DNA of 5,615 bases, taken from a virus. Its lineage: Duplodnaviria; Heunggongvirae; Uroviricota; Caudoviricetes. The position numbers were made by a program, and so were the translations under genes. The notes below the pieces were generated by a model. The model was given only the letters and a program-made list of their open reading frames with translations. It ran no database searches and was not told the DNA's origin. The stretch lies in IMG/VR virus record IMGVR_UViG_2695420369_000012; one strand, 5' to 3'. The stretch's first letter is position 1, and each line of letters begins with the position of its first letter. Of this stretch, positions 2,237 to 5,615 are shown piece after piece.

Positions 2237-2463
2237 GTGCCGGATACATCACAGTTTCTGGAACCTTAGGTACTACAGTATCAGTCAGGGTGCTATATTT
2301 TCAGATGTGATGAAAGCCTGTCAGCAGGCAGGGCGTATCGGAAATGACCCAGTAGAGAAAACGTTGACTCAGATACCGGTGCTGAGTTACCGGGAAACCG
2401 GCATCACATGACCGCTATCCTGAGGTGTACTGGCAATAGCGGACACTACCATTTGTTCTTTTT

Positions 2464-3282
2464 TTAAGCAGCCATCTGATGATATTTTTCCCTGAAGGCT
2501 GCCGGGGAGATATTCCCCAGACGAGAGTGACGACGCTGACGATTGTAGAAAATCTCAATGTATTCCCGTATTACTGAGATGGCTTCATCCCGGTTATTAA
2601 AACGATAGTGGCTCAGGCTCTCATTTTTCAGCGTTCCCCAGAAGCTTTCCATCGGAGCGTTGTCGTAACAGTTACCTTTACGCGACATTGATGTTTTCAG
2701 ACCAGACTGCTCCTGTATGACCCGGTAATCGTATGCGCAGTACTGTGAACCTCGATCAGAGTGGTGGATTAGCCCGGCAGGTGGGCGCTGGCTCCTGAGC
2801 GCCATAAACAGGGCTTTACCTGTCAGCTCTTTTGTCATGCGCTCTCCCATGGCGTAGCCGACAATTTCGCACGTATAAACATCTTTGATGCCAGCGAGGT
2901 ACAACCATCCCTCCTGTGTGGCAACATACGTCAGGTCCGCCACCCAGACCTGATTTGGTGCTGTAGGAGCGAACGTCTGGTTCAGCAGATTTGGCGCAAC
3001 TGGCAGATTGTGGTTCGAGTTCGTAGTCGCTCTGAACTTGCGTTTCTGCTTACAGCGTAGCCTTAGCTCCTTACGAAGACGTGCCAGTCGGTCACGACCA
3101 ACGATGATGCCATTCTCTGCCAGCTCCGTCTGGAGCCGCCGGGTTCCATATGTTTCGCGAGTGCGGATATGTGCCACCTTAATCTCCAGTTTTAGCCGCT
3201 CATCACTTTGTTTTCTGTCTGAGGGTTCATGCTGTACCCAGTTGTAATAACCGCTCCTGGATACACCAAATACCTGACACAT
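2464..3282 (-). CDS. IS3-family transposase OrfB (DDE integrase core)
   Basis: 272-aa ORF with hallmark IS3 OrfB segments: VWVADLTYV...GWLYLA, HSDRGSQY, SMSRKGNCYDNAPMESFWGTLK, YNRQRRHSRLGNISP. Confidence 0.9.
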   Translation of the reverse strand: MCQVFGVSRSGYYNWVQHEPSDRKQSDERLKLEIKVAHIRTRETYGTRRLQTELAENGIIVGRDRLARLRKELRLRCKQKRKFRATTNSNHNLPVAPNLLNQTFAPTAPNQVWVADLTYVATQEGWLYLAGIKDVYTCEIVGYAMGERMTKELTGKALFMALRSQRPPAGLIHHSDRGSQYCAYDYRVIQEQSGLKTSMSRKGNCYDNAPMESFWGTLKNESLSHYRFNNRDEAISVIREYIEIFYNRQRRHSRLGNISPAAFREKYHQMAA

Positions 3283-3317
3283 CGCTTCAATGGGAAATTG
3301 TTGTCGCCATTGTTCGA

Positions 3318-3589
3318 TTAACGCGTATTTTTCAGCGACTCCTGTGCAAAATACGCTGTTGCTTTTTTTAATATATCTCGCTCAAGGCGAGCTTCATTTA
3401 ACGCCTTACGCAGTTGCAGAATTTCAGATTCCAGTTCAGCCACCGTGCGGGAACCAGGAGTACCGAGCCCTTTTCTGGCGGCGGTAACCCATTGTCCTAA
3501 AGTGCCTTCAGGAAGAGATAATCGGGAAGCGCCTTCACTGATCGAAAGTTGATTTTCAATTTCTTTATTTCGGTTCCATACCCACGCGC
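3318..3589 (-). pseudogene. IS3-family OrfA, 5'-truncated (C-terminal ~90 codons remain)
   Basis: Minus-strand frame reads ...EIENQLSISEGASRLSLPEGTLGQWV...ELESEILQLRKALNEARLERDILKKATAYFAQESLKNTR*, with stop at 3318-3320. The N-terminal start is missing because the IS is cut at 3589. Confidence 0.7.
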
Positions 3590-3594
3590 CTACA

Positions 3595-3618
3595 ACCCGC
3601 CGCCGAGCGGGTTTTTTA
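3595..3618 (+). terminator. second copy of the tR'-like terminator, fused directly to the truncated IS end
   Basis: Same hairpin as 137-159 (ctacaACCCGCcgccgaGCGGGTttttttat), but with no pR' or Q upstream. Confidence 0.5.
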
Positions 3619-3656
3619 TTGCGGAATTAATTACGGACCGTTATTATTCTGCTCCC

Positions 3657-3732
3657 GGCCCTTTAGCTCAGTGGTGAGAGCGAGCGACTCATAATCGCCA
3701 GGTCGCTGGTTCAAATCCAGCAAGGGCCACCA
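3657..3732 (+). tRNA. ileZ: tRNA-Ile2 (CAU), second copy
   Basis: 76/76 identical to 1727-1802. Confidence 0.85.
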
Positions 3733-3739
3733 TCACAAA

Positions 3740-3819
3740 CCGCCATTAGCTTATCAGGAAGAGCAGACGACACGATAACAGGGTTGTTGGTGCGGGGGCG
3801 GGTCCCCGATGGCGGTCCA
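3740..3819 (+). pseudogene. degenerate tRNA-Arg-like gene: acceptor stem and D-arm kept, anticodon arm and T-loop replaced
   Basis: Same acceptor stem (CCGCCAT/ATGGCGG) and D-arm as the tRNA at 1810-1886, but the interior reads AGACGACACGATAACAGGGTTGTTGGTG and the T-loop is GCGGGT rather than TTCAAGT. I could not fold a canonical anticodon stem. Confidence 0.5.
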
Positions 3820-3832
3820 TTATCGGTATTCA

Positions 3833-3909
3833 GCGTTGTTAGCTCAGCCGGACAGAGCAATTGCCTTCTAAGCAATCGGTCACTGGTTCGAATCCAGTAC
3901 AGCGCGCCA
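3833..3909 (+). tRNA. tRNA-Arg (UCU), second copy
   Basis: Identical to 1900-1976 except one acceptor-stem position (A to G), which leaves a G-U pair. Confidence 0.85.
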
Positions 3910-4019
3910 TATTCATTCTTCCAGATTCCTTCCGGCAGAGCCTTATACTGAAATATACCTGGCTCAGGATATTGTTGAAAATATTTTATGTTTGTCAAAA
4001 ATAAAAGTTCTGTTAAGTA

Positions 4020-4373
4020 TTGATTGAGTGTTTGTTATACGGTCTAATGGTTTTTTCAGCATTAAATATTTATCATTCATATGGTGTGGGTAGAGTGAAT
4101 ATTGATGAGGCGTCGGGGTGTTTCATCCTTAGGCAGCGTATTGATATAGTCAATGCAGCACGAGCAAAGGCCTTCAGCCGTTTGACAGTTTTGTTCTGTA
4201 CTCCTGATCGTCTTTCGGGAAGAGACGTTATTATTCTGAATAGTGATGCTATACAGAGGGTTTGCGATGAGTTCATGGTTGCTAATTCAGAATTATTTGC
4301 TCTTGTTCAGGAGTACAACAGAATAGCCAGGACCTGTGGTATGGATGAACTTCGGATTACTCATCTGGGGTAG
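4020..4373 (+). CDS. hypothetical protein (up to 117 aa) in an AT-rich insert; start uncertain (TTG 4020, ATG 4047 or GTG 4095)
   Basis: Open frame in an AT-rich segment that is absent from the first module. No convincing Shine-Dalgarno at any candidate start. No recognisable motif. Confidence 0.4.
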   Translation: MIECLLYGLMVFSALNIYHSYGVGRVNIDEASGCFILRQRIDIVNAARAKAFSRLTVLFCTPDRLSGRDVIILNSDAIQRVCDEFMVANSELFALVQEYNRIARTCGMDELRITHLG

Positions 4374-4565
4374 ATACATATCTGGATTATCACCTGTTAC
4401 GGTAAAAAGTGATTGCTTACTGTTTTTGTGAATGGCATTGCAGCAGCCGGATAATGTCAGTGCTGGCTGACGGTGTGCTGGTGGCGGGTGTGGTGGTTGT
4501 TGCTTTCCCGTTGCTGAAAAAGAAAACGCCAGACTGTTAGCCGGGTATCAGTTAGCGGGAGAAAT

Positions 4566-4790
4566 TTTTAAATACTTCACAATTCAGGCGGTTGACTGTT
4601 GTCTGGTTTGCGGGGAGTTTGTTAAAAGAAACTGGCATGGTGAATCCCCCTGTGCGGAGGGGCAATCAGCGAGTAGGTATATGGGATAATCGCGGATTCA
4701 GGTGCTGGTACTGAATTCACCGGGAGGCACCCGGCACCATGCAATGGCACATAGCGCCACTCTCCAGCCCCTCTCCGGAGGGGCTGTTTA
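4566..4790 (+). repeat. conserved ~225-bp structured element, copy B
   Basis: Matches 2013-2236. Terminal hairpin CCCCTC tccg GAGGGG followed by ctgTTTaTaTT. Confidence 0.7.
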
Positions 4791-4820
4791 TATTGATTTT
4801 GTCAGATGTGAGTAAACTCC

Positions 4821-5156
4821 TTATGGACTTTGTTGTTTTAGTCCATAAGGACATATTTGCAGAGTGCAACGGTTATTAAAGCATTCATTCAATACGTTAT
4901 CTGTATTTGTAGGGCATTCCTGGCTATTTTTGATTGAATTCCAGAATGTTTTATTGAATGGTACTACGTTGTAAATGGTTACAGGTAGCACTTTGTTATT
5001 GAGCATGATGCCTGTGTGAGTCAGTGTAAATATACTTTCAGGAGGTAAGAAAGCATCCGATTGATACCAGATTATTAATTTTATTTTACTCCATATGACT
5101 GAAAAAGATATTCCGCATGATGGCTGGATAACTGTATCAATCACAATCCACTTCAT
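4821..5156 (-). CDS. iraM: IraM-like anti-adaptor protein (YcgW/ElbA family, RssB inhibitor that stabilises RpoS); 111 aa
   Basis: Strong Shine-Dalgarno (AAGGAAactaa-ATG). The N-terminus [19 protein letters not shown] and the C-terminal ICPYGLK with conserved cysteines (SQECP...C...C...ICPYG) match my recollection of E. coli K-12 IraM, at roughly 60% identity overall. AT-rich context. Confidence 0.65.
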
Positions 5157-5416: not shown

Positions 5417-5543
5417 ATGGCATTTAAACACTATGATGTTGTCAGGGCGGCGCCGCCGTCAGATCTTGCGGAAAAGCTGACACATAAACTGAAAGAGGGC
5501 TGGCAGCCGTTTGGTAGTCCGGTGGCCATAACCCCTTATACCC
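5417..5543 (+). pseudogene. DUF1737-like small phage protein, 3'-truncated by IS insertion
   Basis: ATG at 5417 with RBS GGTGGAAAG. MAFKHYDVVRAAPPSDLAEKLTHKLKEGWQPFGSPVAI resembles the small proteins that precede holin genes in lambdoid phages. The frame runs into the IS end at 5544 and picks up IS-derived residues. Confidence 0.4.
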
Positions 5544-5615
5544 TGAGGTGTACTGGCAATAGCGGACACTACCATTTGTTCTTTTTTTAAGCAGCCATCT
5601 GATGATATTTTTCCC
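5544..5615 (-). mobile_element. second copy of the same IS3-family element; only its terminal 72 bp fall in the window
   Basis: 5544-5615 matches 2421-2492 (TGAGGTGTACTGGCAATAGCGGACACTACCATTTGTTC...). Confidence 0.75.

Follow-up and report, generated by a model that had tools for sequence, protein, structure and literature searches.

It appears probable that positions 4095-4373 (plus strand) of the DNA analysed here are a real gene, 92 codons long and starting with GTG, and a mobile "moron" of the late operon whose product would be a self-associating, protein-binding helical hairpin. This DNA (hereafter the window, 5,615 nucleotides in all, from the IMG/VR record IMGVR_UViG_2695420369_000012) is over its whole length a piece of an Escherichia coli lambdoid prophage. 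The initial annotation had pointed to an uncharacterised ORF of 117 aa at 4020-4373, lying in an AT-rich insert, and the homologues, the purifying selection and the plus-strand coding described below indicate that this ORF is genuine. The feature is real but ordinary; it belongs to an already catalogued family and represents mainly an annotation gap. We refer to the 92-codon form as ORF92.

The window begins with the 3' end of a Q antiterminator gene (1-55, stop at 53-55), followed by a PR'-like promoter (61-88, TTGATT-16-TGgTAAATT) and a tR'-like hairpin terminator (132-168); the organisation of positions 1-168 is the same as that of 4560-4710 in L001, a prophage locus with the window type of the ORF. 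In the module A stretch after this hairpin there are a 65-aa ORF and a DNA adenine methyltransferase gene (628-1686). Module A, placed by repeat analysis at 1687-2217, is collinear with module B (3617-4770). The first copy of the three tRNAs, called by ARAGORN, is at 1727-1976, and the first copy of the STnc100 sRNA gene, detected by Rfam, at 2053-2242, with a weak third STnc100 match at 2281-2469. An IS3-family element on the minus strand (2416-3589, transposase at 2464-3282) lacks its far end and abuts module B, the start of which lies inside a second tR'-like intrinsic terminator (3590-3626, plus strand, CAACCCGCCGCCGAGCGGGTTTTTT), a 92% identical copy of 132-168 (repeat family D5). Two tRNAs and a degenerate one follow at 3657-3909, the last of them a tRNA-Arg(TCT) (3833-3909, plus strand, by both ARAGORN and Rfam) that is the upstream neighbour of the insert and marks its left edge. 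The first tRNA, with anticodon CAT, is Met according to ARAGORN and tRNA-Ile according to PGAP, and we take it to be the ileZ type familiar from Stx phages. The middle one is a tRNA-Arg(TCG) in module A (1810-1886, ARAGORN) and degenerate in module B, where ARAGORN called no tRNA at the counterpart (3733-3832). Then come the AT-rich segment of 629 bp (3923-4551) bearing the ORF and a DUF3927 remnant, the second STnc100 copy (4606-4795, Rfam), an iraM homologue on the minus strand (4821-5156, NF007393 IraM, E 4.7e-48) and a DUF1737 gene cut at 5539 by a second IS copy (5539-5615). The ends of the two IS3-family copies share a 77-nt repeat with 99% identity. The presence of two copies of the same IS end, the first without its other terminus, suggests that two prophage late regions were joined by an IS-mediated rearrangement or deletion, and since the terminator copy at 3590-3626 begins at the end of the truncated IS, the Q-PR' of module B itself has been lost.

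The ORF listing contains the 4020-4373 frame as claimed, on the plus strand, with a TTG start and 117 aa. The insert was said to span 3910-4565 and to be missing from module A, and this was borne out with slightly narrower limits: 3923-4551 in module B is matched by merely 9 nt (1990-1998) in module A, the D3 repeats ending at 3922/1989 and the D1 repeats starting at 4552/1999. Its AT-richness is also evident in the GC profile (0.335-0.47 over 3901-4500 vs 0.49-0.57 in the tRNA and STnc100 flanks). As described, the 117-aa product has no recognisable motif, with no significant Pfam match (the best, RHIM at E 0.09, is below the cut-off), and there is no clear ribosome binding site at TTG 4020, where the anti-SD duplex has a dG of -0.4 kcal/mol. 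The longest stop-free run in 3910-4565 has 118 codons; among 2000 dinucleotide shuffles of this segment 3% reach that length and 21% reach 92 codons, so that the length of the ORF is weakly unusual. Length alone being weak evidence, the case for a gene rests on comparative data. Rfam detected no RNA family over the ORF, and a terminator-like hairpin at 4209-4227 was judged to be due to chance because it has only three GC pairs and is located inside the CDS.

Three E. coli subtypes of the gene (the window, L003 and L004 types) could be compared. Their DNA identity is 67-72% and their protein identity 59-63%; the 92 codons align without indels, and the Nei-Gojobori dN/dS is 0.26-0.27. The differences at codon positions 1/2/3 in the three subtype pairs are 24/23/44, 19/19/40 and 24/18/40, i.e., about twice as many at the third position as at either of the others. 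The plus frame is open in six lineages (window, L003, L004, L088, L089, and L090), kept through ca. 30% nucleotide and 40-65% protein divergence, while all other frames have stops in at least some of them. At closer range, the 92-codon ORF is intact in 83 of 83 near-identical copies drawn from IMG/VR and genomes, and among the 72 of these that align without gaps the core (4095-4373) is the least polymorphic part of the insert, with 0.032 segregating sites per nt against 0.10 in the upstream intergenic stretch. Five of these core sites are synonymous and four nonsynonymous (pN/pS ca. 0.25). All this identifies the ORF, as far as sequence comparison goes, as a genuine plus-strand protein-coding gene under purifying selection.

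Two other explanations of the open frame have to be considered here. One would be that there is no functional gene at all, only a chance or decaying ORF in the leader of the late operon, its conservation due to recent spread or to an RNA or DNA element. Such an ORF might well go uncalled by PGAP and RAST, as this one does, and have a marginally unusual length (p ca. 0.03) and a weak RBS; besides, 1175 of the 1314 matching E. coli genomes are at least 99% identical. However, neither the survival of the frame across the six divergent lineages nor the codon periodicity of the substitutions and the dN/dS of 0.26 are expected from it; the low polymorphism of the core and the lack of an Rfam family there also speak against it, and we consider it quite improbable. 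The other alternative, that the real gene is on the minus strand (the 67-aa ORF at 4073-4276 or, in L004, the equivalent one of 95 aa), has even less to recommend it and is hardly credible. A stop-free antisense ORF of 95 aa does exist in L004 and L087, and the antisense frame that shares the wobble positions gives a dN/dS of 0.22-0.38, but this low value is the expected artefact of shared third positions. The antisense frame has two stops in the window, two in L003, six in L088 and four each in L089 and L090, against none in the plus frame, and the database homologues and the PHROG profile are all plus-strand products. The initial annotation had named an absence of both homologues and expression, or a minus-strand gene, as the outcomes that would speak against its ORF. 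Homologues were found, with the frame kept at 59-63% protein identity, and the minus strand is excluded on sequence grounds: stops interrupt its frame in several lineages (the window, L003, L088, L089, and L090) but the plus frame in none of the six.

The strand and frame of the ORF were thus correctly described, but its length of 117 aa is not supported, as conservation, polymorphism and the distant homologues all point to 92 aa. The true CDS is most likely 4095-4373 on the plus strand, 92 codons plus a stop, with a GTG start, a choice that follows from the onset of identity, the polymorphism, the starts of distant homologues and the Shine-Dalgarno (SD) energies. Identity across subtypes sets in precisely at GTGAATATTGATGA, whose GTG is at window position 4095, and all ten divergent family members examined (from Citrobacter, Providencia, plasmids, and metagenomes) begin at the equivalent position. 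In the L004 type, the PGAP call is also the 92-aa form with a GTG start. A weak SD-like sequence, GGTGTGGGT (4083-4091, plus strand), is found 4-12 nt upstream of this GTG. The anti-SD duplex has a dG of -4.5 kcal/mol for GTG 4095, -2.4 for ATG 4047 and -0.4 for TTG 4020, with -4 or better reached by 24% of window positions, and homologues have an SD in the same place (AGGAG, -6.9, in L004; AAGGGA, -5.1, in L088).

A longer product, 117 aa from TTG 4020 or 108 aa from ATG 4047, is an unlikely but not negligible alternative. Most near-identical copies have no stop in the frame from 4017 onward, the phrog_2873 profile has 108 positions, all of which (1-108) are matched by the 117-aa query, a 108-aa "hypothetical protein" has been deposited on more than 1000 contigs, and some L003-type variants (P0014, P0015) also have an in-frame extension. 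Nevertheless, the polymorphism of the 75 nt at 4020-4094 looks neutral (one synonymous and four nonsynonymous segregating sites, 0.067 per nt, pN/pS ca. 1.3), with one frameshifted and one stop-truncated variant among the 83 copies. The equivalent tract has indels of 2, 2 and 3 nt that break the frame, plus stops, in L003, is unalignable in L004 and is absent from every distant homologue, and the SD energies of the two upstream starts are the poorer ones. Positions 4020-4094 are therefore probably a non-coding 5' leader, with 25 upstream codons that appear to evolve neutrally, and both the 108-aa form found in GenBank and PHROG and the 117-aa form are probably over-extended. The comparative data in this way correct the start codon of the deposited 108-aa versions and of the PHROG profile. 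The L003 locus has a short upstream ORF of its own at ca. 5000-5073 (beginning with TTG, MIDCIRYSLNVFSIKSYNHLVFA*), the TGA of which overlaps the GTG of the 92-aa gene (GTGA); this could be a coupling uORF or noise. In P0014 and P0015 a GT-rich indel fuses it in frame with the 92-aa gene.

The 92-aa protein is a typical member of PHROG 2873, a catalogued phage family with no assigned function. Its residues 1-92 match positions 17-108 of the 108 in the profile (E 5.6e-58), the 117-aa form gives E 3.8e-70 and the L003 and L004 homologues 1e-46 and 9e-47, while phrog_4827, a remote relative, is matched at E 2e-5 to 5e-8. Two homologue searches against 5.8 billion proteins returned 17 and 32 matches. 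An exhaustive HMMER pass gave just 21 among 1.84 billion representatives, which makes this a narrow family. All the matches are hypothetical proteins, from Escherichia/Shigella, Citrobacter, Providencia and a few metagenome contigs. No relatives of P0035 were found in IMG/VR, and literature searches on the accession and the PHROG identifier found nothing. Pfam and NCBIfam gave no significant match for the 117-aa and 92-aa forms and their homologues (Pfam none in 11 members at E<=1), and no PADLOC-DB family of anti-phage defence proteins was matched by the three subtypes at E<=1. The profile search against PDB sequences was also insignificant (best E 0.038; GapR/UPF0335 0.14-0.46; Rop 0.59). 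A UniRef entry for the 92-aa L004-type protein (A0A4C9WQW5_ECOLX, in the cluster of P0022/P0058) bears the name "GGDEF domain-containing protein"; this is probably a mis-annotation, as no scan gave a GGDEF match.

In the AlphaFold2 model two long helices (residues 3-34/35 and 50-81), with a conserved TPDR-x-SG loop between them, pack antiparallel as a hairpin; the mean pLDDT is 83.8 (7 sequences) or 88.6 (11 sequences). Fold searches with this model retrieved generic hairpins only. In the family alignment R23, P37, N64, Y74, N75, and A78 are invariant or nearly so (R23, Y74 and N75 invariant by eye) and there is no conserved Trp. The conserved positions of helix 2 fall on one face of the model, which may be a seam for interaction or oligomerisation. 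We saw no hydrophobic segment, and acidic and basic residues are roughly balanced (12/11, counted by hand), features that do not suggest a membrane protein or a basic binder of nucleic acids; judged from its sequence, the protein would be soluble, roughly neutral and non-membrane.

The gene is common. Of 5426 complete E. coli genomes, 1184 (22%) cover at least 80% of a 411-nt query, although much of this prevalence reflects recent spread given the near identity of most matches. In 36 sampled copies not one RefSeq feature covers the ORF, and in the sequenced phage mEp460_ev081 the plus-strand ORF is present and likewise unannotated. RefSeq thus misses a constrained small gene in about one fifth of complete E. 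coli genomes while the adjoining remnant ORF is annotated. The L003 type was found in 80 genomes, mostly of non-O157 STEC, and is unannotated; the L004 type was found in 51, mostly of pig ETEC and bovine isolates, where PGAP calls a 92-aa hypothetical protein. The practical value of this finding is modest, but the gene is a clean candidate for small-protein work and for the study of accessory genes in the Q-to-lysis hot spot of the Stx-phage type.

In lambdoid prophages (L001-L004, L087, L088, L098, and L100) the gene is always found between Q/tR' and the lysis cassette. In L001 the Q gene, a promoter-like site (TTGATT-16-TGgTAAATT) and the tR' hairpin precede the tRNAs and the ORF, after which come the DUF3927 remnant, STnc100, iraM (minus strand), DUF1737 and a holin; L002, also of the window type, has a TolA-like gene in place of iraM. 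The neighbours vary widely in the rest: an AraC-like HTH gene 89 bp upstream and four tandem STnc100 genes and a nanS-p-type esterase downstream in L003; a methylase before the ORF, and DUF1883 (minus strand) and a holin after it, in L004; a methylase, the ORF, TerB, DUF3927 and a holin in L087; an AraC-like gene, tRNAs, the ORF and holins in L100; a Q-like gene followed at some distance by the ORF (here ORF95), a TerB-like gene, holins and an endolysin in the Citrobacter locus L088; and simply Q and the ORF in L098. More distant members occur among the clustered tail genes of Providencia and Mu-like phages, behind a bfpH-like gene in a type IVb pilus operon (compared with pMAR2), and, flanked by IS, next to chaperone-usher fimbrial operons on F-type plasmids. 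No neighbour is conserved across all these contexts, and hence the gene behaves, on this sequence evidence, as a single-gene mobile accessory "moron" of temperate phages. It is present or absent between otherwise collinear modules, has a deviant GC content (0.34-0.47 vs at least 0.49 in the flanks) and has homologues in unrelated phage modules and on plasmids.

Some loci have features of their own. The L003 strain RM10042, an STEC, has five STnc100 genes in a single prophage late region (3668-3880, 5639-6618), four of them head-to-tail in the 1.5 kb, unannotated in RefSeq, that directly follow the ORF92 homologue. L087 (JAEWMQ010000075.1) is a 2.7-kb contig in a "Bacillota bacterium" MAG with an E. 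coli-type prophage stretch, and its ORF92 product is identical in amino-acid sequence to that of L004; the contig is probably mis-binned.

The usual setting of the gene, with Q, PR', tR' and the tRNA block upstream and the lysis cassette downstream, points to transcription with the late operon. The lambda/933W late-transcription model provides an established basis for read-through by Q. In the L001 arrangement, RNA polymerase modified by Q would proceed from PR' through tR' and the tRNAs into the ORF, and an additional weak promoter may exist in the AT-rich leader. A scan found no terminator between 4373 and 4409. A TTGATT-17-TCTAAT sequence was seen by eye at 4020-4048 and is not conserved in L003; the consensus scan gave four promoter-like sites against 2.6 expected, i.e., background level, and demonstrated no local promoter in the window. 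As the cognate Q-PR' has been replaced there by the truncated IS, expression in the window would depend on read-through out of module A or on a promoter nearby. The product most likely self-associates through the helix-2 seam (N64, L67, L70/V71, Y74-N75, and A78) and acts by binding another protein and not by catalysis, as might be expected of a small soluble hairpin that has a conserved surface but lacks catalytic motifs. Our best guess is, then, a small oligomerising protein-binding factor that is transcribed with the late operon.

Other roles can be proposed from the genes found around it. A partnership with IraM had been suggested by analogy with ycgX, the DUF1398-family gene next to iraM in K-12. 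In 54 of 77 near-identical loci (70%) iraM is indeed found within 1.5 kb downstream, but it is absent from the other 23 and from all 7 divergent homologue loci, and the K-12 iraM, flanked by icdC, ymgK, ymgL, and ycgX, has no homologue of the ORF nearby. In the window the two genes are on opposite strands, with the DUF3927 ORF and an STnc100 gene between them. At E<=1 the Pfam search did not match the 117-aa and 92-aa forms to DUF1398, nor 11 members to this or another family, and Pfam and NCBIfam models of the anti-adaptors IraM, IraP and IraD did not match the 92-aa protein. The co-occurrence counts and the K-12 locus lead us to reject the IraM-partner reading; ORF92 is not a DUF1398 or IraM-partner gene, and the chances of such a role, or of one analogous to YcgX, are very slim. 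The prophage IraM is 60% identical to that of K-12, and its gene, lying between STnc100 and the DUF1737 gene, itself behaves as a late-region moron.

The DUF3927 neighbour leads to another proposal, namely that the ORF is the first gene of a stress or exclusion module together with a TerB-like TciA and the small membrane protein TciB (DUF3927). Full tciA(TerB)-tciB pairs exist in L087, L088 and phage JLK-2012, and the gene orders of L087 (ORF92, TerB, DUF3927, and holin) and of the Citrobacter L088 (ORF95, TerB-like, and holins) speak for it. In the window the DUF3927 ORF (4409-4540, plus strand, 43 aa) is annotated by PGAP and matches positions 7-53 of the Pfam DUF3927 profile with E 1.7e-27. 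It is 36 nt downstream of ORF92 and its homology to the tciB of JLK-2012 starts only at 4441, in mid-gene; this ORF appears to be chimeric, a 3' remnant of a tciB-like gene, and in 3 of 72 copies a G>T change at 4430 makes it a nonsense allele. However, JLK-2012 carries tciA-tciB without the ORF, the ORF is found without TerB/DUF3927 in L003, L004, L100 and the plasmid and tail-cluster loci, and it is under purifying selection in 1184 genomes without tciA. We find it improbable that such a module exists, and give the same small chance to its having decayed in the window to the ORF and a tciB remnant.

A link with AraC-family regulators has been considered too, since three subtypes of the ORF have an AraC-family HTH gene directly upstream: L003 (4257-4982, 89 bp from the ORF, in 79 of 80 genomes), L100 (4109-4696, 305 bp upstream, across the tRNAs) and, within the window type, loci L014 and L039. 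The two AraC-like versions are 60% identical, a divergence about that of their ORF92 neighbours, and PsrA/PsrB/PatE, regulators of O157:H7, may be their relatives. Loci of a kind typically regulated by AraC, namely fimbrial and type IVb pilus operons, adjoin other members of the ORF92 family. ORF92 might then be a small regulator working with AraC/XylS-family activators, by analogy with the ANR anti-activators, which are also small, all-helical and oligomerising binders. On the other side, most window-type loci have no AraC-like gene, and O157:H7 and other STEC widely carry an AraC+tRNA module (ca. 90% DNA identity) that lacks the ORF, which weakens the coupling. Altogether we see little likelihood in this role, and as little in any particular partner, be it a prophage Psr/PatE-like regulator or the host GadX, GadW or YdeO. 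Were it correct, the helical-hairpin family could be a new class of small mobile regulators that bind an AraC/XylS-type or other host regulator, an equally long shot, travelling as single-gene morons among lambdoid late regions, tail clusters and plasmids with fimbrial or type IVb pilus operons; ORF92 would then be a functional ANR analogue of unrelated sequence. The AraC and BFP-like contexts also brought PerC and PerB to mind, but with the EPEC plasmid pMAR2 proteins as references hhalign gave probabilities of 0.2% (PerC) and 2.6% (PerB), and this identity was rejected. Membership of the ANR family was likewise rejected: no NCBIfam or Pfam match was obtained, and the published ANR signature residues were not seen on inspection of the family alignment by eye.

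Among known systems the closest is PHROG 2873 itself, with a full-length match, a similar size and a phage or prophage origin in common, the difference being the 16 additional N-terminal residues of its profile (from ATG 4047), which the comparative data indicate to be non-coding. In fold, the prefoldin beta subunit and generic coiled-coil hairpins may be the closest to the modelled ORF92 hairpin. ANR proteins such as Aar are small (<10 kDa), all-helical, oligomerising binders with three predicted helices and the signature A10, E14, A22, W26, A29, W43, and R47 (PMC4983702). ORF92 is similarly small, all-helical, probably oligomerising and cytoplasmic, resides on mobile elements of enteric bacteria and sometimes adjoins AraC-family genes, an adjacency that is not obligate, but it differs in size (92 aa), in having two long helices and in the absence of the conserved Trp/Arg signature and of any HMM match to that family. 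With the morons of the lambdoid Q-to-lysis region (stx, the nanS-p esterases, tciA/tciB, and the Psr/PatE AraC-like genes) it shares no sequence or fold relation; what it has in common with them is the zone in which it is inserted (after Q, PR', tR' and the ileZ/arg tRNA block), the AT-richness and the presence or absence among related phages.
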